The translations under genes and the position numbers were made by a program. The notes under the pieces were generated by a model, which was given only the letters and a program-made list of their open reading frames with translations, was not told the origin of the DNA and ran no database searches. Below are positions 12,743 to 44,296 of a stretch of 47,318 nucleotides of DNA, in pieces. This DNA comes from an uncultured Clostridia bacterium (lineage in GTDB: Bacteria > Bacillota > Clostridia > TANB77 > CAG-508), in assembly GCA_944391825.1 (NCBI GenBank), contig CALXUZ010000002.1, forward strand, positions 1-47,318, written 5' to 3'. The first letter of the stretch is position 1. Each line of letters begins with the position of its first letter.

Positions 12743-12812
12743 AAGTCAGAAATCGGAAGTCAAGGACTAAAAATCAATATAATGTTGATTTCCGTTTTCT
12801 GACTTTTCTTTT
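12743..12812 (+). terminator. long-stem terminator
   Basis: AAGTCAGAAATCGGAA pairs with TTCCGTTTTCTGACTT (one mismatch), followed by TTCTTTTT. Confidence 0.55.
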
Positions 12813-12813
12813 T

Positions 12814-12860
12814 GGGGACGGGTCCCAGTCACCCTATTTAGGGTGACTTAGGGACGCTTC
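12814..12860 (+). repeat. REP-B copy 1: GGGGACGGGTCCC-AGTCACCCTATTTAGGGTGACT-TAGGGACGCTTC
   Basis: The 47-nt nested palindrome recurs at 35584, 40519, 41686 (+) and 41776 (-). Confidence 0.85.
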
Positions 12861-12906
12861 TTTCTAAAAAAACTCAAATTGTACTTACAAAAGGGAGGAG
12901 AACAAA

Positions 12907-18560: not shown

Positions 18561-20501
18561 ATGAAAAATAAATATATGAACGATGCCATTATAGGTGGCG
18601 GAAATATAACAGCAAGCTATACAGAAAAAGGAGAACTATTAAGGGTAATGTATCCAGCACCAGATTTTAGAAATTGGATAGACGAATTTCTAACAGGTGT
18701 AAAAATAAACGATTCTGGAATTGTTTACTTGCATGATGATATTAATAATCAATATAATCAGTATTATACAGAAAATACAAATGTATTACACACAGAAATT
18801 TTAAATACATATTTTAAATTAAGTGTAAAACAAACTGATTTTGCTATGTTAAATAAAAGTGTATTGATAAAAAAATATGAATTTGAAAACAAAAATAATA
18901 TTGAACTAGAAGTGAATTTTTTAGTACATGCAAAACTATTATCGGATACAAATAATATGGTTGGTTCAGAAATAAAAGAAAATGCTTTGGTACAATATTC
19001 ACATGATTATACCATGTATACATTTTCTAAAAATCCACTACTTAGTTATCAACTAAACGATACTAGTTCAAATATTGTAAGTGGTGTAATCCAAGATAAG
19101 GACTATATTGGTATGTCTAGTGATTCTAGTGTTAGTTATGATATTGGAACATTAAAACCAGGAGAAAAAAAGAAATTTGTACTATTTTTATATTTCAAAA
19201 TAAACGAAGAAAATCAGTCAGAAGTTGCAATAAAAAAAGAATTAGCAGACATTAGAAAATTAGACGAAAACAAAGAAGAACAATCAGTTGAAAAATATTG
19301 GAAAAAATATGTAAAAGACCATATAAACATAGAATTAAAGCCAGAAACAAGCGAATATAATAAAAAATTTAATAAAATATACCAAAGATCAATACTTCTA
19401 TTTCCATTATTAATAAATCATCAAACAGGAGGAATATCTGCAGCAGTAGAAGTGGATGAAAATATAAAAGAGTGTGGAAGATATAGTTATTGCTGGCCAA
19501 GAGATGCGGTTTTTGTAACAAGAGCACTTGACCAAGTAAAAATGATAAAAGAAGCAGAAAAATTTTATAAAGTCTTTTGCAAAAACACACAAAGCAAAAA
19601 TGGTATGTGGGAGCAAAGATTTTTTACAGATTGCAAATTAGCACCTTGTTGGGGATACCAAATAGACGAAACAGCAAGTGTAATATATGGATTATATGAA
19701 CATTATAAAGTAGTAAAAGATGCAAAATTCCTAAAAGACACCTATAAAATGTGTGAAAACGCAACTAAATTTTTAATAAACTATTTAGATAACATTTTTG
19801 GTACAAAAGACAAATCAGATATAGTAAAAAATGAAATAGAAAAAACATATCACACAGAGGATAGAAATAAATTACCAGTAAGCTATGACTTATGGGAAGA
19901 AAATGAAGGTATCCACTTATATTCTTTAGCTTCAATATATGGGGCATTTCAGTCAATGAAAAAAATCCATGAAGTATTAAAACCTGAATTTGAGCCAAAT
20001 AATAGGCTAAAAGTTGAAGCAATAAACAAACTAGAAGCAAAAGTAATTTTATACCAAGAAGAAATAAAAAAATACATTTTAGCAAACTTATATGATACAG
20101 AAACAAAAGCATTTTTGAGAAACAAAACTGATAAAAAAACAGACATTAGCCAATTGGGAATAGTGGTACCATTTGAAATATTTTCACCAAAAGAAAAGAA
20201 AGTGCTAAACACTGTAGAAAAAATAAACATGACAATAAGAACATATACGGGTGGATATTTAAGGTTCGAGCAAGACCATTATATGGGTGGAAACAGTCCA
20301 TGGCCAGTTGCAACATTATGGATGGGCATGTATTACCAAAAGGCGGGAGAAAAAAACAAGGCAAAAGAATGCCTCAAATTTGTTGTAAACACTGCAAACA
20401 AACACGGCTTTTTAGGAGAGCAAGTAGACAATAGCACAATGAGCCCAAACTGGGTAAACGGCCTAGCCTGGTCCCACGCCATGTTCATTTGTCTTAATTA
20501 G
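18561..20501 (+). CDS. glycoside hydrolase family 15 (glucoamylase/glucodextranase-like)
   Basis: CWPRDAVFV, WEENEGIHLYSLA, GYLRFEQDHY, LAWSHAMF (alpha/alpha)6-barrel motifs. Confidence 0.8.
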   Translation: MKNKYMNDAIIGGGNITASYTEKGELLRVMYPAPDFRNWIDEFLTGVKINDSGIVYLHDDINNQYNQYYTENTNVLHTEILNTYFKLSVKQTDFAMLNKSVLIKKYEFENKNNIELEVNFLVHAKLLSDTNNMVGSEIKENALVQYSHDYTMYTFSKNPLLSYQLNDTSSNIVSGVIQDKDYIGMSSDSSVSYDIGTLKPGEKKKFVLFLYFKINEENQSEVAIKKELADIRKLDENKEEQSVEKYWKKYVKDHINIELKPETSEYNKKFNKIYQRSILLFPLLINHQTGGISAAVEVDENIKECGRYSYCWPRDAVFVTRALDQVKMIKEAEKFYKVFCKNTQSKNGMWEQRFFTDCKLAPCWGYQIDETASVIYGLYEHYKVVKDAKFLKDTYKMCENATKFLINYLDNIFGTKDKSDIVKNEIEKTYHTEDRNKLPVSYDLWEENEGIHLYSLASIYGAFQSMKKIHEVLKPEFEPNNRLKVEAINKLEAKVILYQEEIKKYILANLYDTETKAFLRNKTDKKTDISQLGIVVPFEIFSPKEKKVLNTVEKINMTIRTYTGGYLRFEQDHYMGGNSPWPVATLWMGMYYQKAGEKNKAKECLKFVVNTANKHGFLGEQVDNSTMSPNWVNGLAWSHAMFICLN

Positions 20502-20541
20502 GGACAGTCCCCAATCTACCATTTTTGTCTTCGTTGGGGAC
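20501..20541 (-). repeat. REP-A copy 1 (inverted orientation), left flank of the RAYT gene
   Basis: Reverse complement reads GTCCCCAACGAAGACAAAAATGGTAGATTGGGGACTGTCCC; the GH15 stop TAG (20499-20501) abuts it. Confidence 0.85.
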
Positions 20542-20562
20542 AGCCTATTAATAATTTATTAG

Positions 20563-20603
20563 AAAATTTTGGAAAAAATATAGCATATTAGATAAAAATA
20601 TGC
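20563..20603 (+). terminator. rho-independent terminator after GH15
   Basis: AATATAGCATA / TATGCTATATT stem with a T-rich tail. Confidence 0.6.
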
Positions 20604-20723
20604 TATATTTTATATAGTTTAATTAGTCATGTCGATTATTATTTCGCTGGCTAATGCATAGGGGCATATTATTTAGTAAAAAGATTATGATAAGGGAAAT
20701 TGAGAAAGGAGAATAGGAATAGT

Positions 20724-21503
20724 ATGCCACGAATATCTAGAAGGAATAGCATTAACAATAGCAGAATTTATCATATTATTTTGAAAGGAGTAAATGGACA
20801 GGAAATATTTTTTGACGATAATGATAGAATTAAATTTTTGCAACAATTAAAAGATAGAAAAAAAGAATATCAGTATGAAATTTATGCATATGTTTTAATG
20901 AATAATCATATACACTTAATTTTATTTGATAAAGAAAATAGAATGTCTAATATAATGCACAGAATCTGTACATCATACGCACTATATTTTAATCGAAAAT
21001 ATGAAAGAAAAGGACATTTATTTCAAGATAGGTTCAAAAGTAAATGTGTAAATTCTGAAAATTATTTATTGAGATTACAGAGATATATTCATAGAAATCC
21101 TCAAAAAGAAGCAATTGGCAAAATGGAAGAATATAGGTGGAGTAGTTATAAAGAGTATGTATCTGGTGCTCAAATTGCTAATCCTAGTTTCGTTTTGAGT
21201 CTTTTTTCCGAAAATAAATCTAGGGCTGTTGAAATGTTTATTCAATATAACAAACAAAATGAAGAAAAGTATGGAATAGAAGAATTTGAGATTAGAAAAA
21301 AACTAACAGATGAAGAAGCAATAGATAGGATTAAAATGTTGTTAAATACAGAAAATGTATTGTCGATATTGAATTTAAATGCTAAAACAAGAAACAAATA
21401 TATAAAAATAATAGCTGAAGTAGACGGTATATCTTATAAACAAATAGCTAGAATATTGGGTATCAATACAAGAACAATACAAAGAGCAGTAACTGGTAAA
21501 TAA
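20724..21503 (+). CDS. REP-associated tyrosine transposase (RAYT, IS200-like Y1/HUH) with C-terminal HTH tail
   Basis: YHIILKGVNGQEIF, HUH = NNHIHLIL, GHLFQDRFKS, catalytic-Tyr helix LQRYIHRNPQKEAI; C-end GISYKQIARILGINTRTIQRAV; ATG 20724 follows AAAGGAGA. Confidence 0.8.
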   Translation: MPRISRRNSINNSRIYHIILKGVNGQEIFFDDNDRIKFLQQLKDRKKEYQYEIYAYVLMNNHIHLILFDKENRMSNIMHRICTSYALYFNRKYERKGHLFQDRFKSKCVNSENYLLRLQRYIHRNPQKEAIGKMEEYRWSSYKEYVSGAQIANPSFVLSLFSENKSRAVEMFIQYNKQNEEKYGIEEFEIRKKLTDEEAIDRIKMLLNTENVLSILNLNAKTRNKYIKIIAEVDGISYKQIARILGINTRTIQRAVTGK

Positions 21504-21520
21504 TATTAAAAAAGAAGTGT

Positions 21521-21562
21521 GTCCCTAAAGAAGACAAAAGTGGCACATTGGGGACTGTCCCC
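21521..21562 (+). repeat. REP-A copy 2
   Basis: GTCCCTAAAGAAGACAAAAGTGGCACATTGGGGACTGTCCCC; a partial second unit continues into the radA SD/ATG. Confidence 0.85.
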
Positions 21563-21574
21563 AAAGGAGACAAA

Positions 21575-22930
21575 ATGGCGAAGACGGTGTTTGTATGTAG
21601 TAATTGTGGTTATGAGTCTAGTAAGTGGCTGGGTAAGTGCCCGGGGTGTAATGAGTGGAATTCTTTTTATGAGGAAAAGCTAAATAAGGCAACGGTTAAG
21701 GGAGGAGATAAAAAGAGCAAAGCGGTTAGCCCAAAAGCTTTAAATGAGGTTGTGGGAAAGGATGCCAGCCGTACTCATACAGGAATAGGAGAATTGGATA
21801 GGGTTTTAGGTGGAGGCTTGGTAAAGGGCTCTTTGGTTTTAGTTGGTGGAGAGCCTGGCATTGGAAAGTCTACGCTTATTTTGCAACTTTGTGATAAGGT
21901 TCAAGGAGAAGGCAAGGTTTTATATGTTTCTGGAGAAGAATCTGCAGAGCAAATTAAGCTAAGGGCTGATAGATTGGGAATTCATAATGATGATATTTTG
22001 TTTTTAGGCGAAACAGATATTGAGATGATTGAAAATAATATCTTGGAAATAAATCCAAAGTTGGTTATTATAGATTCAATACAAACTATGTATTCAGAAG
22101 ATATTTCGTCTGCTGCAGGAACTGTGAGCCAAGTGCGTGAGATTACAGCTCGTGTTATGCGTGTTTGCAAAAGCAATGAAATTACCACTATTATAATAGG
22201 ACATGTTACTAAAGAAGGAAATATAGCAGGTCCAAGGGTATTAGAACATATGGTAGATACCGTGCTTTACCTAGAAGGCGAAAGGTACTTTTCGTATAGA
22301 ATTTTGCGTAGTGTTAAAAATCGTTTTGGTTCTACTAATGAAATAGGCATGTTTGAAATGAAAAATGAAGGCATGGTGGAAATTACAAATCCTTCTTCTG
22401 TATTAATATCAGAAAGAGAGGATAATCCACCAGGATCTGTTATTGTAGCGAGTATGGAAGGAACAAGACCGCTTCTTGTTGAATTGCAAGCATTAACAAC
22501 TCCAACAGTATTCGGATTTCCAAGAAGAACTGCAAATGGAATTGATTATAATAGGCTTACAATTTTAGTGGCAGTGTTGGAAAAACGAGCAGGTTTGCAA
22601 CTAGGATCACAGGATATATACTTAAATGTTGTAAGTGGAATAAAAATTAATGAGCCTGCAGTGGATTTAGGTATGGTTATAGTTTGTGCATCAAGCTTTA
22701 AAAACACAAGTATAGATAAAAGAACGGTTATAATAGGCGAAGTTGGCTTGACAGGAGAGGTAAGAGCGGTTAATATGATAGATAAAAGATTAAAAGAAGC
22801 GGAAAAATTGGGCTTTAAGACTTGCGTTATACCAGAAAGTAACAAAAAACTATTGAAAGATAAGTATAATTTAGATATAATAGGTGTCAGAAATGTAAAT
22901 GATGCGATGAGGGCAGTGGAGCTAAAATAG
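21575..22930 (+). CDS. radA: DNA repair protein RadA/Sms
   Basis: Zn finger CSNCGYESSKWLGKCPGCNEW, Walker A GEPGIGKST, KNRFG, Lon-like C-domain; the true start is ATG 21575 (MAKTVFVC), not 21548. Confidence 0.95.
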   Translation: MAKTVFVCSNCGYESSKWLGKCPGCNEWNSFYEEKLNKATVKGGDKKSKAVSPKALNEVVGKDASRTHTGIGELDRVLGGGLVKGSLVLVGGEPGIGKSTLILQLCDKVQGEGKVLYVSGEESAEQIKLRADRLGIHNDDILFLGETDIEMIENNILEINPKLVIIDSIQTMYSEDISSAAGTVSQVREITARVMRVCKSNEITTIIIGHVTKEGNIAGPRVLEHMVDTVLYLEGERYFSYRILRSVKNRFGSTNEIGMFEMKNEGMVEITNPSSVLISEREDNPPGSVIVASMEGTRPLLVELQALTTPTVFGFPRRTANGIDYNRLTILVAVLEKRAGLQLGSQDIYLNVVSGIKINEPAVDLGMVIVCASSFKNTSIDKRTVIIGEVGLTGEVRAVNMIDKRLKEAEKLGFKTCVIPESNKKLLKDKYNLDIIGVRNVNDAMRAVELK

Positions 22931-22939
22931 TTATAACCT

Positions 22940-22981
22940 GTCCCGGATGAAGACAAAAGTGGTAGATTGGGGACTGTCCCC
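22940..22981 (+). repeat. REP-A copy 3
   Basis: GTCCCGGATGAAGACAAAAGTGGTAGATTGGGGACTGTCCCC, followed by the partial unit AAGAAGACAAAAAGGAGG containing the disA SD. Confidence 0.85.
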
Positions 22982-23004
22982 AAGAAGACAAAAAGGAGGA
23001 TGAC

Positions 23005-24063
23005 ATGGATATTGCTGAAGTATTAAAGATGATTGCACCAGGTACGCAAATTCGTGATGGCTTGGAAAATATTTTAAAAGCTAAAACAGGTGCATTAATA
23101 GTCATTGGTGATACAAAAGAAGTTTTAGATTTGGTTGATGGTGGATTTAAATTAGATATTGATTATACTTCTTCAAGGCTTTATGAGCTTGCTAAAATGG
23201 ATGGAGCAATTGTCCTTAGCAATGATTTGAAGAAAATTTTATATGCAAATACACAGCTAATTCCTTCATCAAATATAACTACAACTGAAACAGGTACAAG
23301 ACATCGTACGGCTGAGCGTACGGCTAAGCAAACTGGAGCCTTAGTAATAAGTATTTCTCAAAGAAGAAGCATTATTACTATATTTAAAGGCAATTACAGA
23401 TATGTTTTAGAAGATACTTCAAAGGTGATTTCAAAAGCAAACCAAGCTTTACAAACTGTTGAAAAATATAAGAAGGTTTTTGATGATAAATTAAGCTTAC
23501 TTAATGAATATGAATTTAATGACATTGTAACATTGGAAAATGTAATTAGTAGTATTCAACGCGCGGAGATGGTAGTGAAGGTAGTTGATGAGGTGCAGAT
23601 GGCAATTTATGAATTGGGTGCAGAAGGTAGACTTTTGGAGATGCAGTTAGAAGAATTAGTAGGTGATTTGGAAAAAGAGGAATTATTAATTATTAAAGAT
23701 TATATTGCACCTGGCAAAAAGCGCACTGCAGAAAAGGTATTAGAAGAAATTAGAAAATTAGACCATGATGATTTATTAGTTGCAGAAAAAATTGCTAAAA
23801 GCTTAGGCTATGAAGATTTTGACAATTATGATGAGGTCGGAGTTTACACAAGAGGATACCGTGTACTTAATAAAATACCAAGGATGCCAAGCAATATAGT
23901 TGAAAATCTGATTAAAAGTTTTAAATCTTTTCAACATATTTTGGCAGCTGATTTACCACAGCTGGATGAAGTTGATGGAATTGGAGAAATTAGAGCAAGA
24001 ACTATAAAACAGTCATTAAAACGTATGCAAGAACAATTTATGTTTGACAATTTAATTATGTAA
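23005..24063 (+). CDS. disA: DNA integrity scanning protein DisA (diadenylate cyclase)
   Basis: DAC domain (GALIVIGD, DGAIVL, GTRHRTAER) plus a C-terminal HhH domain. Confidence 0.9.
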   Translation: MDIAEVLKMIAPGTQIRDGLENILKAKTGALIVIGDTKEVLDLVDGGFKLDIDYTSSRLYELAKMDGAIVLSNDLKKILYANTQLIPSSNITTTETGTRHRTAERTAKQTGALVISISQRRSIITIFKGNYRYVLEDTSKVISKANQALQTVEKYKKVFDDKLSLLNEYEFNDIVTLENVISSIQRAEMVVKVVDEVQMAIYELGAEGRLLEMQLEELVGDLEKEELLIIKDYIAPGKKRTAEKVLEEIRKLDHDDLLVAEKIAKSLGYEDFDNYDEVGVYTRGYRVLNKIPRMPSNIVENLIKSFKSFQHILAADLPQLDEVDGIGEIRARTIKQSLKRMQEQFMFDNLIM

Positions 24064-24106
24064 TATGTTATATTAGTAAAATTAAAAGATAGAAAGTCGG
24101 AGAACC

Positions 24107-24120
24107 GTCCCTAAAGGAGG
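24107..24120 (+). repeat. REP-A unit fragment GTCCCTAAAGGAGG supplying the SD of the next gene
   Basis: Matches the start of the REP-A unit; ATG lies at 24126. Confidence 0.5.
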
Positions 24121-38704: not shown

Positions 38705-39166
38705 ATGGAAAGAATAAGAGGATTTGAAGTAGCAAAAGGATTTGAAGAAAGCAATATTAATATGCCAGTACGAAAGACAAAATATTCTGCTGGGTATGAT
38801 ATAGAAGCTGCAGAAGATACTGTAGTTCCAGCATTTAAACTAGGTCAAGCACCAACACTTATAAAAACAGGAATTAAAGCATATATGCCAAAAGATGAAT
38901 ATTTAATGCTTTGCAACAGAAGCTCTAACCCAAAGAAAAAAGGACTAGTATTGGCCAATAGTGTGGGAATTATAGATGGAGACTATTATGGAAATCCAGA
39001 TAATGATGGACACATTATGTTTGCATTTTACAATATAAAAGCAGAAGATATTGAAATAAAAAAAGGTGAGTGTATAGGACAAGCAATTTTTCAAAAATTT
39101 GCTATTACAGATGATGACAATGCAGAAGGCGAAAGACTAGGCGGTTTCGGCTCAACAAGTAAATAG
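38705..39166 (+). CDS. dut: dUTP diphosphatase
   Basis: SAGYDI, GIIDGDYYG, GGFGSTSK motifs. Confidence 0.9.
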   Translation: MERIRGFEVAKGFEESNINMPVRKTKYSAGYDIEAAEDTVVPAFKLGQAPTLIKTGIKAYMPKDEYLMLCNRSSNPKKKGLVLANSVGIIDGDYYGNPDNDGHIMFAFYNIKAEDIEIKKGECIGQAIFQKFAITDDDNAEGERLGGFGSTSK

Positions 39167-39182
39167 GGGACGGTCCCTTTTT
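39164..39182 (+). terminator. REP-core hairpin plus T-run acting as the dut terminator; it overlaps the stop codon
   Basis: TAG-GGGAC-G-GTCCC-TTTTT. Confidence 0.5.
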
Positions 39183-39215
39183 GCCCATTTATGGATAATT
39201 TGGGACAGGTGAGTA

Positions 39216-39257
39216 AAAAACTCCCAACAAGTATTACATTTGTTGAGAGTTTTTTTG
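39216..39257 (+). terminator. second rho-independent terminator
   Basis: ACTCCCAACAA / TTGTTGAGAGT stem followed by TTTTTT. Confidence 0.65.
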
Positions 39258-39260
39258 TCT

Positions 39261-39301
39261 GTCCCTAAGTAGGACAAAAGTGGTAGATTGGGGACTGTCC
39301 C
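39261..39301 (+). repeat. REP-A copy 5
   Basis: GTCCCTAAGTAGGACAAAAGTGGTAGATTGGGGACTGTCCC. Confidence 0.85.
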
Positions 39302-39340
39302 TAACGAAGACACATATTCAAAAAAATTTTCAAAAAACTA

Positions 39341-39368
39341 TTGACAAAATTTAAAAAGGGAGTATAAT
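39341..39368 (+). promoter_or_regulatory. sigma-A promoter of the ctsR operon
   Basis: AAAACTA-TTGACA, 16-nt spacer, TATAAT. Confidence 0.65.
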
Positions 39369-39933: not shown

Positions 39934-40515
39934 ATGTTATGTCAAAATTGTGGAAAAAATGAAGTGACTTTTAGATACACACAAATAATAAATGGTGTAA
40001 AAAAGGAGATGGCACTTTGCGATAAATGTGCCAAAAGTTTAGGACTAGAAAGTTTGGATTTTAATATGCCAATTAATTTTTCAAACTTTTTAGGAGATTT
40101 TTTAAATGGAGCAGTAGATACGGACTTTTTACCAAGCTTTACAAAAACTGGTGTATTGCAATGTGATAATTGTGGTATGACATATAATGAATTTGTAGAT
40201 GCTGGAAAACTTGGCTGTAGTGAGTGCTATGACATATTCTCAAACTTTTTAGATCCAGTTCTTAAAAGTATACACGCATCTGATACACATGTAGGGAGAA
40301 GAAGCAGACTTAGCCTAGCAGATAAAAAAAGAGTTGCAGAAGATATTAAAAAAATTAAAAAAATGAATTCTGAAAATGCAAAAAACGCTAAAAGAGAGGC
40401 TAATAGCAAAGAAGAAAAAATAAAAAAATTAAATGCAGAGTTGAAAACAGCTATTAAAGAAGAAAGATACGAAGACGCAGCTAAAATAAGAGACGAAATC
40501 AAAAAAATGTCTTAG
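39934..40515 (+). CDS. mcsA: McsA (zinc-finger / UVR-motif activator of McsB)
   Basis: CQNCGKNE...CDKCA and CDNCG...CSECY zinc fingers; C-terminal UVR-like EERYEDAAKIRDEI. Confidence 0.85.
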   Translation: MLCQNCGKNEVTFRYTQIINGVKKEMALCDKCAKSLGLESLDFNMPINFSNFLGDFLNGAVDTDFLPSFTKTGVLQCDNCGMTYNEFVDAGKLGCSECYDIFSNFLDPVLKSIHASDTHVGRRSRLSLADKKRVAEDIKKIKKMNSENAKNAKREANSKEEKIKKLNAELKTAIKEERYEDAAKIRDEIKKMS

Positions 40516-40518
40516 TTT

Positions 40519-40561
40519 GGGACAGTCCCCAGTCACCCTATTTAGGGTGACTCAGGGACGC
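40519..40561 (+). repeat. hybrid REP: REP-A core (GGGACAGTCCCC) fused to the REP-B central hairpin
   Basis: GGGACAGTCCCCAGTCACCCTATTTAGGGTGACTCAGGGACGC. Confidence 0.8.
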
Positions 40562-40671
40562 ATCTACATTTAAAAACAAATTATTATTGCTAGGAAAAGC
40601 AAAAAATAGTGCCAAAGTTATCTTAATTGTGGACAGACTTTAACAAGGGCAAAAAAGAAGGAGGAGAGAAT

Positions 40672-41688
40672 ATGCAAAATTGGTATTTACAAAATGGTAA
40701 AGATTCAGATGTGGTAATAAGTTCAAGAGTTAGACTAGCTAGAAATTTAATGGATATTCCATTTCCAACAAAGTTTACAAAGGAGCAAGCTAAAAAGGTT
40801 TTAGAAAGAGTAAAAGAAATTACACCAAGTATTGGTTATGGGCTAAAGTTCATAAACCTAAATGACTTGGATGATATTACAAAAGTAAGCCTAGTGGAAA
40901 AGCATGTAATTAGTCCAGAGTTTGCTATGAATAAACAAAAAATAGGTGGTATGGTTATAAATGATGAGGAAAATATTTGCATGATGATAAATGAAGAAGA
41001 CCATATTCATATTCAGGTTTTTAGCTCTGGATTGGACCTAGAAAATTTGAAAAATTTAGCTATTGAAATAGATGAAAAATTAGATAATATGGTAAATTAT
41101 GCTAGCCATGAAAAATATGGGTATTTAACTTCCTGCCCAACAAATGTTGGAACAGCGATGAAGGCATCTGTAATGGTGCATTTGCCAGCATTAACAATGA
41201 CAGGAAATATTGGAAAAATATTTAATATTGTCAATGGCTTTGGCATGAATATTCGTGGAATTTATGGAGAAGGCACACAAAGCCAAGGAGATATTTATCA
41301 AATTTCTAATAAACAATCACTTGGAATTACAGAAAATGATATTATTAAGAATTTAAATATTATTACAGAAAGAGTAATTGAACAAGAAAGGATGGCAAGA
41401 AAATATTTAGCTAAAAATTCAATAGACTTAGAAGATAGAGTTTACCGCGCATATGGAACTTTGGCATATGCAACAAAACTTTCATCTGATGAGTGTAAAA
41501 AACTGCTTTCATATGTAAAATTGGGAACGGATTTGGGAATAATTAAAGAATTAAATGATAGCAAAATATCAAAGTTATATTTATACAACCAACCTGCAAA
41601 TTTACAGAAGTATGTAGGAAAACCACTAGATGGATATGAGAGGGAAATTAAGAGACCAGAAGTGATTAAAGAGATAATGTCAGCTTAG
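40672..41688 (+). CDS. mcsB: protein arginine kinase McsB
   Basis: ATP:guanido phosphotransferase domain (SSRVRLARNL, NEEDHIHIQ, TSCPTNVGT). Confidence 0.95.
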   Translation: MQNWYLQNGKDSDVVISSRVRLARNLMDIPFPTKFTKEQAKKVLERVKEITPSIGYGLKFINLNDLDDITKVSLVEKHVISPEFAMNKQKIGGMVINDEENICMMINEEDHIHIQVFSSGLDLENLKNLAIEIDEKLDNMVNYASHEKYGYLTSCPTNVGTAMKASVMVHLPALTMTGNIGKIFNIVNGFGMNIRGIYGEGTQSQGDIYQISNKQSLGITENDIIKNLNIITERVIEQERMARKYLAKNSIDLEDRVYRAYGTLAYATKLSSDECKKLLSYVKLGTDLGIIKELNDSKISKLYLYNQPANLQKYVGKPLDGYEREIKRPEVIKEIMSA

Positions 41689-41733
41689 GGACGGGTCCCA
41701 GTCGCCCTAATTAGGGCGACTAGGGGACGCTTC
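41686..41733 (+). repeat. REP-B copy 4 (overlaps the mcsB stop TAG)
   Basis: TAGGGACGGGTCCCAGTCGCCCTAATTAGGGCGACTAGGGGACGCTTC; compensatory A-T to G-C change. Confidence 0.85.
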
Positions 41734-41775
41734 ATAATAGTTATAAATAATATAATAAATTAAAGATTTGGAGGA

Positions 41776-41821
41776 GAAGCGTCCCAACTCACCCTATTTA
41801 GGGTGAGTGGGACCCGTCCCC
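41776..41821 (-). repeat. REP-B copy 5 (inverted); forms a REPIN-like doublet with copy 4
   Basis: GAAGCGTCCCAACTCACCCTATTTAGGGTGAGTGGGACCCGTCCCC; compensatory G-C to C-G change. Confidence 0.85.
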
Positions 41822-41845
41822 AATCAGGAAAGGAAGTGTATTATT

Positions 41846-44296
41846 ATGATGTATAAATTTACAAATAGAGCTGAAAAAGCCTTGGAATTTGCGGCAGAGC
41901 TTGCTGCAGAATTTGGACATAATTATATTGGAACAGAACATATTTTATATGGCTTGGCAAAAGAAGGTACAGGTGTTGCAAGCAAAGTATTAGAAATGCA
42001 AAACATTACCCCTGACGAGATTGCACAGGAAATTGACAATTTAATAGGCAGAGGAGAAGAGATTGAGGATATTTCTGATATTGGTTTTACACCTAGAAGC
42101 AAAAGAGTAATTGAAAGTGCTTTTATAGAGTCTAGAAAATTAGGCTCTGAATTTATCGGAACAGAACATTTACTAATTGGTATTATGCGTGAAGGTGATA
42201 GTGTTGCTGTTCGTATTATGATGGATTTAAATGTAAGCCCACAAAAATTATACAATGAAATTATTAAGGTTATTAACGAAGATGATAATGCTAGTATGCC
42301 TGATAGACAGGGAAATAACAAAGCGCGTGGCAGTTTTAACCAAACTCCAACACTAAATCAATTTGGTACAGACTTAACTAAAAGAGCAGAGGAAGGAAAA
42401 CTAGATCCAATTATAGGAAGAAAAAACGAGATAGAAAGAGTTATACAAATTCTATCAAGAAGAACTAAAAATAACCCATGTTTAATTGGTGAGCCCGGTG
42501 TTGGTAAGACTGCGGTAGCAGAAGGGTTAGCCGAAAAAATAGTTTCAGCTAATGTGCCAGAGATGTTAAAAAATAAAAGAGTTGTAAGCCTAGATATTGC
42601 AAGCATGGTGGCTGGCGCAAAATACCGTGGAGATTTTGAGGAAAGAATAAAAAAATGCCTAGAAGAAGTTAAAAAAGCAGGAGATGTTATATTATTTATA
42701 GATGAAGTTCATACTATTGTTGGTGCTGGCTCTGCAGAAGGTGCAGTTGATGCTGCAAATATTTTAAAACCACTATTAGCAAGGGGAGAAGTACAAGTTA
42801 TAGGTGCTACAACCTTGAATGAATACCGTAAATATATTGAAAAAGATAGTGCATTAGAAAGAAGATTTTGCCCAGTAACAGTTGGAGAGCCAACAGAGGA
42901 AGAAACAATACAAATATTAAAAGGTATTCGTGATAAATATGAGGCACATCATAATGTAAAAATTACAGATGAGGCAATAAGAGCAGCAGTGGAATTATCT
43001 ACAAGATATATTAATGATAGATTTTTACCAGATAAGGCAATAGATTTAGTTGATGAGGCAGCATCCCGTGTAAAAATGAGAACTTATACACAGCCAGATG
43101 TTCTAAAAAAATTAGAGGATAAAATTGCGGAAATAGGAAAAGAAAAAGAAGAAGCAATTCGTAGCCAAGACTTTGAAAAGGCTGCAAGTCTTCGTGATAA
43201 AGAAAGAGAGCAAAAAGAAAAACTAGAAAAAGAGACTGAAAAATGGAAAAACAAAAACAATAAAAATGTAACAGCATTAACAGAAGAGGACATTGCAGAA
43301 GTTGTGGCAAGTTGGACAGGTGTTCCTGTACAAAGATTAACACAAAGTGAAAATGAAAAACTTAAAAATCTAGAGCAAACATTGCATAAAAGGGTAATAG
43401 GACAAAATGAAGCAGTAGATGCTGTGGCAAAAGCAATTAGAAGGGGCAGAGTAGGGCTAAAAGACCCTAACCACCCAATAGGTTCATTTCTATTTTTGGG
43501 TCCAACTGGTGTTGGTAAAACAGAACTTTCAAAGGCATTGGCAGAAGCATTATTTGGAAACGAAGAAGCTATGATACGTATTGATATGTCTGAATATATG
43601 GAGCCACACTCAGTTGCAAAATTAATTGGTTCACCTCCAGGATATGTTGGGTTTGATGAAGGTGGACAGTTAACAGAAAAAGTTAGAAGAAAACCATATT
43701 CTGTTATATTATTTGATGAAGTAGAAAAAGCCCACCCAGATGTTATGAATATGTTACTTCAAATTTTAGACGATGGACGATTAACTGATAGCCAAGGAAG
43801 AACTGTAAACTTTAAAAATACTGTTATAATAATGACATCCAATATTGGTGCAAGGCTAATTACAGATAAAAACACTTTGGGATTTTCTGCATCAAGTGAC
43901 AAAAAAGAAGAAACACAAAAAGAATATGAAAACATTAAAAAAGATGTTATGGGAGAGCTAAAAAAACAATTTAGACCAGAATTTATAAACCGTATTGATG
44001 AAATTATTGTATTCCACAAATTAAATGATGAAGATGTAAAACAAATAATTGACATTATGTTAAAACAAGTTGAAAAACGTATGAAAGAGCAAGATATTGA
44101 AATAGAACTTGATGATAGTGTAAAAGACTTAATTGCTAAAAAAGGTGTGGATACAAATTATGGGGCAAGACCACTTAAAAGGACTATTCAAAACATATTA
44201 GAAGATAGAATTGCAGAAGCAATTTTAGATGGAGAAATAAAGCCACATAAATTGGCTAAAATAAGTGCAAAAGATGAAAAGCTGATTATAGAGTAG
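41846..44296 (+). CDS. clpC: ATP-dependent Clp protease ATP-binding subunit ClpC
   Basis: Clp_N repeats, two AAA+ modules ([16 protein letters not shown]), UVR motif; the true start is ATG 41846 ([13 protein letters not shown]), not 41807. Confidence 0.95.

Follow-up and report, generated by a model that had tools for sequence, protein, structure and literature searches.

The transposases of the IS200/IS605 elements, such as IS608 and ISDra2, are Y1 enzymes of the HUH type that act on hairpins of single-stranded DNA (ssDNA), and the elements insert beside a short specific sequence without target duplication and are precisely excised. In the TIRtrons described by Di Nocera et al. 2013, the terminal inverted repeats (TIRs) of the TIRYT genes have GGGGWSAS in common, and some of them occur in dispersed families (PMC3733652). 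TnpA_REP proteins of subclass 2.1 bear HTH_23/HTH_28/Bac_DnaA_C domains, and no REP-like sequences were reported near their genes by Quentin et al. 2018 (PMC6006769). The element considered here, REP-B, is a 47-nt palindromic repeat noticed in contig CALXUZ010000002.1 of an uncultured Clostridia bacterium (GCA_944391825.1), the 47,318 nt of which are referred to as the window. REP-B is a real and previously undescribed short palindromic DNA repeat of uncultured gut Clostridia that belongs to the known TIRYT/RAYT kind, and it is not a novel structured RNA. With a probability of about 0.7, this small, non-autonomous DNA repeat represents, in dispersed form, the TIR of a RAYT-like Y1 (HUH) transposase with a C-terminal helix-turn-helix (HTH) domain, of the TIRYT or TnpA_REP subclass 2.1 kind.

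The window is chromosomal DNA of a Firmicute with 30% GC, and its genes include ftsK, infB-rbfA and ctsR-mcsA-mcsB-clpC. The 47-nt sequence quoted in a preliminary description for 12814-12860 was read there exactly, and all five copies it listed are present, the others at 35584, 40519 and 41686 on the forward strand and at 41776-41825 on the reverse strand. Each unit consists of two direct copies of a box, (A)TTGGGGACGG(TTC), around a 22-nt palindrome, AGTCACCC-TAWWTA-GGGTGACT, and in the window lineage the 5' box has changed to GGGGACGGGTCCC, extending the hairpin to ~14 bp. The three stem variants already described were recovered as AGTTACCC/GGGTAACT, AGTCGCCC/GGGCGACT and ACTCACCC/GGGTGAGT. 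B3, which had been taken as equal to B1, has the identical hairpin but differs in its 5' box, TGGGACAGTCCCC rather than GGGGACGGGTCCC, and in its 3' side, CAGGGACGCATC; B2 carries GGGTCCA. In element orientation the loop is TATTTA in B1 and B3, TAAATA in B2 and B5, and TAATTA in B4. Folded as ssDNA, each unit gives a bulged hairpin of ~14 bp at -12.9 to -16.4 kcal/mol (z -5 to -6.6), while the REPIN-like inverted doublet formed by B4 and B5 reaches -45.5 kcal/mol (z -11.6). Chance does not explain the copies in the window: the core CCCTAnnTAGGG is present five times where shuffles predict 0.08 (six matches are counted, the palindromic core of B4 being read on both strands), and the motif GGGACnnGTCCC has five matches against 0.10 expected, four of which lie within REP-B copies. 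All of the copies are located at gene junctions (Table 1).

The link between REP-B and a transposase was found not in the window but in other strains of the species. The RAYT protein of the window, which the preliminary description had put forward as a partner to be tried, is a Y1 enzyme of 259 aa, here labeled TIRYT-A. Its HUH motif is HIH, its tyrosine lies in RYIHRNP (the class-2 Y---NP motif), and Pfam assigns it Y1_Tnp (1.1e-12) and HTH_23 (26.9 bits, cut-off 24.6, residues 237-263). Against the NCBIfam model REP_Tyr_transpos (NF047646) it scores 65.3 bits, under the cut-off of 80, and phmmer found no relative in the PDB at E <= 0.01. Its gene is flanked by REP-A, a different repeat, and not by REP-B; nhmmer recovered REP-A as four dispersed copies together with inverted copies on either side of this gene. 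From its flanks, the protein is probably not the cognate enzyme of REP-B, with the box common to both repeats leaving room for cross-recognition. Conspecific strains (0.3-1.1% divergent) were obtained through look-ups of window proteins, and a search of their loci with the REP-B model turned up a copy in L157, in the interval from the Y1 gene to radA. This locus and L207 encode a peptidyl-prolyl isomerase (PPIase) identical to that of the window and have the same synteny, GH15-Y1-radA-disA, with a Y1 protein, TIRYT-B, of 268 aa that is 41% identical to TIRYT-A. TIRYT-B has the motifs HIH and RYIHLNP, matches Y1_Tnp at 7.7e-15 and scores 67.5 bits against REP_Tyr_transpos (cut-off 80); it aligns with TIRYT-A through residue 252, and Pfam finds no significant HTH in it. 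In L207 its gene, at 3015-3821, is flanked by inverted REP-B copies at 2805-2856 (sense) and 3856-3908 (inverted), of which the left one overlaps the 3' end of GH15 and the right one abuts the start of radA. Since REP-B flanks TIRYT-B on both sides, it is taken from this arrangement to be the terminal-repeat family of the B-type enzyme, a Y1 enzyme not encoded in the window. The association extends to more distant orthologues of TIRYT-B, with inverted REP-B variants on both flanks of a 71%-identical one (L209), a REP-B variant downstream of a 76%-identical one (L208), and the boxes kept around another palindrome beside a 56%-identical one (L211).

The Y1 cassette is thus allelic within the species, the A-type with REP-A ends (window 20498-21566) and the B-type with REP-B ends (L207 2805-3908; L157 1-410). 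The boundaries of the swap fall exactly at the outer repeat ends, the left one following GCCATGTTC and the right one preceding the ATG of radA. REP-B thereby gains a concrete partner, a specific Y1-HTH allele, and conspecific strains make up a natural experiment, in which a single locus has either an A or a B cassette and the repeat families of the two differ but are built on a common box. This polymorphism and the deep conservation of the box are the most interesting by-products of the analysis. The natural experiment opens testable questions for the least understood RAYT-like branch: what is recognized by the HTH domain and what by the Y1 domain, whether the family mobilized by an enzyme is its own alone, and whether the hairpin is kept up by selection or by correction at the DNA level.

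Like TIRtrons, the system combines a Y1 enzyme of the HUH type, bearing the Y---NP motif and, in TIRYT-A, a C-terminal HTH_23, with a flanking repeat that is found dispersed as well, in moderate abundance; this repeat is partly self-complementary and forms dimers and clusters. The inverted REP-A flanks of the window gene carry GGGGACAG, an exact match to GGGGWSAS, and the REP-B flanks of TIRYT-B, in the same inverted arrangement, carry GGGGACGG, with G for A at position 7. Unlike TIRtrons, the REP-B unit is built as box-palindrome-box with direct rather than inverted boxes, one locus of one species harbors two allelic cassettes that differ in repeat family, and the host belongs to an uncultured AT-rich lineage of gut Clostridia outside the TIRtron surveys. 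REP-B also resembles the REP/REPIN-RAYT systems (REPtrons) of Enterobacteria and Pseudomonas, being a short extragenic palindrome in tens of copies, some of them inverted doublets such as B4-B5, with a single-copy, vertically inherited Y1 gene flanked by the repeat and with copies that evolve as a population within the genome. It differs from classical REPs in lacking GT[AG]G at the 5' foot of the hairpin, where REP-B has GTCCC on the top strand and CCCTA on the bottom strand, and from REPtrons in its lower copy number and in Y1 proteins that reach only 65-68 bits against REP_Tyr_transpos, under its cut-off of 80; classical REPs have neither the conserved boxes nor the extra HTH domain. In CGTC-REPs, the tag abuts a stem of 8-9 bp that opens with A/T pairs and is followed by a loop of 4-5 nt and a CCA tail (PMC3733652). 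REP-B likewise has CGTC 5' of the palindrome on its bottom strand (GAAG-CGTC-CC-TA-AGTCACCC...); membership in this group was rejected on anatomy, as CGTC lies inside a longer box 4 nt from the stem, the stem starts with AG, the loop has 6 nt (4 nt if T.A closes) and there is no CCA tail. The IS200/IS605 enzymes acting on ssDNA hairpins serve as the model here, although these elements lack TIRs and their TnpA lacks an HTH, whereas the enzyme in question is RAYT-like (class 2) and a putative transposase.

A wider set of copies was collected with the pattern GGGAC-N12-CCCTAnnTAGGG-N6-7-GGGAC, in which the outer five stem pairs were left free, scanned against a collection with one genome per species. 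It gave 36 matches beyond the window, all but one in four metagenome-assembled genomes (MAGs) of uncultured Clostridia; the single chance match is an Armatimonadota contig. REP-B is thus not restricted to the window; such a restriction is what the preliminary description had named as counting against its claim. One MAG holds ~23 copies and another ~14, and a sequence-only nhmmer model added three degenerate copies. A scan of a viral collection returned one chance match, in a contig of 63% GC, and no link to phages.

Covariation was computed on a 42-sequence alignment (A3), in which 17 stems have the consensus, six are fully compensated variants and 19 are imperfect. At the pair C20-G35, 24 copies have C-G, three have T-A and 13 are unpaired; G18-C37 is G-C in 31, C-G in one, G.U in one and unpaired in seven; A21-T34 is A-T in 36, G-C in two that are orthologues, and unpaired in two. 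Double changes that preserve pairing fill seven cells against 1.4 in shuffles, with none of 500 shuffles reaching seven, while the Fisher tests for coordinated change give p = 0.037, 0.17 and 0.053 for the individual pairs. The compensatory substitutions pointed out in the first five copies therefore stand as an excess over shuffle expectation, but single changes are about four times as frequent as doubles (28 mismatched against seven compensated cells), and the non-compensatory substitutions that were to speak against the idea do occur, in the 19 imperfect stems. The hairpin is kept more than independent mutation predicts, the excess of coordinated changes is modest, and the five copies of the window are an unrepresentative sample of REP-B stems. 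The accompanying statement that selection acts on the fold rather than on the primary sequence is wrong, because CCCTA..TAGGG and the GGGAC boxes are nearly invariant across the 42 copies. Alternative pairing of GGGAC...GTCCC...GGGAC, also suggested at that stage, is available in the window lineage but not in sister genomes, which have GGTGGTC or GGTTCT in place of GGGTCCC, and the outer GTCCC/GGGAC helix is not conserved across them.

A compensatory signature can also arise at the DNA level in one step, by template switching in a palindrome or by gene conversion between copies. Correction of quasipalindromes by template switching and inversion of hairpin loops are established DNA phenomena. 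The former, as in E. coli thyA and lacZ, turns an imperfect palindrome into a perfect one in one step, comparable to the double stem changes of REP-B; the latter, as in the small inversions of chloroplasts, inverts a loop between inverted arms, comparable to the TATTTA/TAAATA flips. Both are general mutational processes and not a property of one element, and their operation in REP-B would be deduced from patterns. Three such patterns were found. First, the loop reads TATTTA in 22 copies, its reverse complement TAAATA in 18 and TAATTA in two, while the asymmetric boxes hold the orientation of the unit; as the loop also flips at an orthologous locus (B1 is identical in 10 strains, and the eleventh, L195, has a flipped loop and a T.G pair), palindrome-specific DNA events do happen. 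Second, the B2 site between infB and rbfA carries T-A, C-G, or C-G with a mismatch in the second arm, all among strains whose RbfA is identical, and the alleles are distinguished by changes on both sides of the pair while the flanks hardly change; no half-changed intermediate was seen there among strains 0.3-1.1% divergent. Third, the B2 site is also filled in the MAG CAMSEM, whose coding DNA is ~80% identical, and the orthologous copies of the window and of CAMSEM each have the box variant of their own genome, which indicates concerted evolution. A purely mutational origin of the compensatory pattern, by template switching, loop inversion or ectopic conversion with no selection on the fold, is accordingly a possibility of some weight that falls short of being probable, and it concerns the earlier inference from the stems and not the identity of the element. 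The persistence of many imperfect stems (19 of 42) speaks against it, since correction would have to be inefficient, as does the recurrence of unrelated palindromic cargo beside the same box in distant lineages (L211, and the metagenome units described below), which suggests that the hairpin itself matters. As for the strand that folds, 28 mismatches (mostly C.A) and two wobbles are counted on the B1-sense strand, and 14 mismatches and 16 wobbles (T.G) on the other; this bias is only a hint, as many of the cases come from the one genome CAMSEM and may share a founder.

Copies of REP-B also come and go. At the PPIase gene the window and seven other contigs have an empty site with a solo box only, while REP-B is present in L157, L162, L166 and the more distant MAG CALXVE, and was judged present in L207 from the 98-nt spacer between disA and the PPIase gene; among near-identical strains this filled/empty polymorphism is clean. 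In L002 and L015, tandem REP-B units have one box in common. At B4 and B5 one single change each was found, in one strain or MAG, and an orthologue of B4 is present in L004. Turnover, conversion or template switching, and inversion are dynamics of DNA and can yield "compensatory" pairs in one step; the presence/absence polymorphism, the loop flips and the C-G/T-A allele pair at a single locus agree with hairpin processes on DNA no less well than with selection on an RNA fold. As a caution, a few copies of a palindromic repeat with perfectly compensated changes are weak evidence for a functional RNA.

A primarily RNA-level cis element, that is an operon hairpin that shields the upstream cistron from 3' exonucleases, shields a processed 5' end or modulates translation at gene junctions and is selected for its RNA fold, is quite improbable for REP-B. 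The window copies do lie at co-directional junctions (ftsK, infB-rbfA, mcsA-mcsB-clpC) and must be co-transcribed, their fold is strong, and ~30 of 44 copies have one end flush with a gene boundary, at a stop codon or a Shine-Dalgarno (SD) sequence; REPs elsewhere are known to stabilize mRNA (discussed in PMC3733652). An RNA role is opposed by the two orientations relative to genes, which are about equally common (~22 sense and ~17 antisense), by the absence of a T-tail and of any REP-B copy called terminator-like, by the turnover of copies among near-identical strains with unchanged flanking genes, by the 19 imperfect stems, and by mismatches that are mostly C.A on the very strand that is mRNA for B1-B4; loop flips and the tie to the ends of a Y1 gene are, moreover, properties of DNA. 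At gathering score Rfam reported only two tRNAs in the window, and a permissive Rfam search of 40400-41900 gave only mir-2513, a miRNA-precursor model that the B4-B5 hairpin matched with 38.8 bits, below the threshold of 89. An intrinsic terminator was considered separately and rejected, there being no T-run, 3' flanks of GCTTCT plus variable sequence, and no copy among the terminator-like sites. Concerning the flush ends, it is the 5'-box end that meets the stop codon or, in the other orientation, the SD sequence, and beyond the 3'-box end there is then a 20-90 nt spacer. A search of these flush gene-boundary junctions revealed no target consensus.

If REP-B is the dispersed TIR of the B-type enzyme, a mechanism may be proposed by analogy with IS200/IS605 and with RAYT proteins such as E. 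coli TnpA_REP. The Y1 enzyme would recognize the box together with the folded hairpin on ssDNA and would cut and rejoin beside the box, so that copies would be gained next to boxes and lost between boxes, with tandem box arrays as the result. The stem changes would reflect maintenance of a DNA hairpin, in which foldable copies propagate preferentially; another route would be one-step correction from arm to arm or conversion from copy to copy, the same class of event as the loop flips. Effects on RNA, for example through a hairpin in the mRNA between the genes of an operon, would be secondary.

Several points weigh against this assignment. Mobilization of REP-B by the Y1 enzyme is itself inferred, by the analogy given, and the window strain keeps five intact REP-B copies while its locus carries TIRYT-A. 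The box GGGGACGG departs from the published GGGGWSAS at position 7. In the strains whose Y1 locus was retrieved, the filled PPIase site goes with the B-type (L157, L207), but it is only 2.7 kb from that locus, so that the association could reflect linkage. The empty PPIase site may be a box-to-box deletion and not a pre-insertion site; the direction of the polymorphism is ambiguous because REP-B is present at this site in the outgroup CALXVE and 13-nt direct repeats occur in one of the filled alleles (L166). Simple slippage deletion between boxes, which fits the L166 allele and misfits that of CALXVE (GTTG would remain), may have been at work. Segregating sites number five of 199 in REP-B and 127 of 8263 in its mostly coding surroundings (p = 0.24), which gives no clear sign of strong constraint or of hypermutation. 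Lastly, one of four homologues examined for boxes, that of Ornithinibacillus, is without them.

Those four homologues were chosen from a protein search, blind to boxes, and the other three, from Clostridium aceticum, Ca. Syntrophocurvum alkaliphilum and a syntenic MAG of related Clostridia, have inverted GGGAC(G)GTTCT boxes at their flanks. When metagenomes were scanned for the box alone, with a hairpin-unbiased sample of REP-B as the aim, no REP-B was among the matches listed. The scan returned at least ~100 contigs of 25-74% GC with tandem TTGGGGACGGTTC units and short, lineage-specific, often palindromic cargo, at a tandem period of 33-45 nt (L037-L156, for example L040, L045, L109, L117, L140, L145 and L150). 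Among 120 contigs chosen from the listed matches only for box pairs, four encode a Y1 homologue flanked by inverted box arrays. As inverted arrays, the box flanks genes for Y1 proteins with an HTH in the window, in Clostridia that have names and in contigs from metagenomes with 50-62% GC. Overall it was seen beside Y1 homologues over 31-62% GC and as tandem arrays over 25-74% GC. In 77 metagenome units the cargo between boxes has a mean perfect stem of 3.7 bp against 2.7 in shuffles, and in 26% of the units the perfect stem reaches 5 bp or more; general palindromy of the cargo is a real but modest signal. The exact box string TTGGGGACGGTTC was not found in the relevant literature searched.

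The boxes could instead be the fixed binding sites of a domesticated, non-transposing Y1-HTH protein that works with the adjacent radA or comM in host ssDNA processing or repair; REP-A, REP-B and REP-C would then be sites of the host and not mobile elements. A single copy of the Y1 gene occupies a conserved locus, by radA in the window, L203 and L207-L211 or by a comM-like gene in C. aceticum and Ornithinibacillus; the box, of ~11-13 nt, is retained in contigs that range from 25 to 74% GC; B1-B5 are stable in many strains; and RAYTs have been argued to be domesticated genes with vertical inheritance (PMC5581495, PMC6006769). Nevertheless, Y1 alleles that differ strongly, each accompanied by a repeat family of its own, replace one another at one locus within the species, which resembles cassette turnover, and REP-B shows presence/absence polymorphism as well as lineage-specific cargo and box variants, so that domestication of this sort is unlikely. 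A broader proposal is held with similarly little confidence: the box (A)TTGGGGACGGTTC might be the deeply conserved recognition site of HTH-bearing Y1 enzymes across phyla, the enzymes being vertically inherited partners of radA or comM and the REP-A, REP-B and REP-C box-cargo-box sites being seeded by each enzyme allele, in an ssDNA-processing system with a host function. Were it true, REP-B would not be merely a selfish repeat, and the published absence of repeats at subclass 2.1 enzymes would be overturned.

A gene for a recombination helicase directly adjoins the Y1-HTH gene in every lineage examined. In gut Clostridia it is radA (window 21548-22930; L203, L208, L209, L211), and in Clostridium aceticum and Ornithinibacillus it is a comM-like Mg-chelatase/Lon_C gene (L197/L198 and L201/L202). 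Judged from this gene order, the adjacency may mean a functional link, which is not mentioned in the cited literature.

REP-A, REP-B and REP-C have a common architecture, TTGGGGAC-N-GTCCCC, then cargo, then TTAGGGAC(A/G)G. The coordinates of all three in the window are collected in Table 1; a homologous copy of REP-C was found at L019 3415-3456.

Table 1. Repeats of the REP-B, REP-A and REP-C families and the Y1 gene in the window.
Feature	Position	Strand	Remarks
REP-B B1	12812..12861	+	TT-GGGGACGG-GTCCC / AGTCACCC-TATTTA-GGGTGACT / TA-GGGACGCTTCT; between 145-aa open reading frame (ORF) and ftsK
REP-B B2	35582..35631	+	T-A stem variant; infB reading frame enters the copy and ends at the loop TAA (35605-35607)
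REP-B B3	40516..40565	+	A-type 5' box TGGGACAGTCCCC; begins right after mcsA stop codon
REP-B B4	41685..41734	+	G-C stem variant, loop TAATTA; mcsB stop codon TAG (41686-41688) formed within the box (T-TAG-GGAC)
REP-B B5	about 41775..41823	-	inverted, C-G stem variant; 5'-box end ~22 nt upstream of clpC start
Left terminal repeat of Y1 gene, REP-A type	20498..20545	+	TTAGGGACAG-TCCCCAATCTACCATTTTTGTCTTCG-TTGGGGACAG; GH15 stop codon TAG (20499-20501) within first box
Y1 (HUH) tyrosine transposase, TIRYT-A, 259 aa	20724..21503	+	C-terminal HTH_23; between GH15 and radA
Right terminal repeat of Y1 gene, REP-A type	21519..21566	-	inverted relative to left repeat; abuts SD and start of radA
Dispersed REP-A	22936..23000	-	same boxes, non-palindromic cargo GAAGACAAAAGTGG; between radA and disA
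Dispersed REP-A	30386..30450	-	upstream of rimP
Dispersed REP-A	39257..39312	-	upstream of ctsR promoter
REP-C	39163..39203	+	same box architecture, different small palindrome (TAGGGGACGGTCCC-TTTTTGCCCATTTATGGATAA-TTTGGGACAG)
Solo box	24099..24114	-	GGAGAACCGTCCCTAA on + strand; directly upstream of SD of PPIase gene

The REP-A unit reads GTCCC-TAA-AGGAG-ACAAAA-(A/G)TG (21517-21595, 22936-23014, 30386-30464, 39257-39335, 20498-20545), so that on the forward strand it contains a stop codon and an SD-like AGGAG, to which the copies at radA (21582) and rimP (about 30446) add the start codon of the gene. From these motifs REP-A may provide gene junctions with signals for translation. Upstream of ctsR, a REP-A copy is followed, ~20-30 nt past its last box, by a perfect sigma-70 consensus promoter (39341-39368), TTGACA-16-TATAAT. 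Long terminator-like hairpins built around the box were also seen at 45684-45725 and 39163-39245, one of them reading GTGTCGTTTTTGGGACAGTCCCCAAAACGACAC followed by a T-run. Noted together with these, a large palindrome after dut varies between strains in its right arm, TGTC against ACTCACC, the latter in L180 and L182 with a longer palindrome.

Other variable features were encountered along the window. An ORF resembling bAvd, the accessory protein of diversity-generating retroelements (DGR), was assigned by precomputed Pfam at 29487-29777 and about 29200-29490, and no reverse transcriptase gene is present among the called genes of this stretch. L205 (11786-12494), compared with L206 (11862-12152), has an extra MutS_I-like ORF just upstream of bAvd that is absent in L206 and in the window, and its bAvd lies ~340 nt further along. 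Finally, a repeat of ~150 nt at 45732-45882, similar to a miniature inverted-repeat transposable element and with terminal inverted repeats (ATTATATTATGA...TCATAATATAAT), has copies of 80-95% identity in the CALXVE loci L001, L004, L007, L008, L016 (two), L032 and L035.

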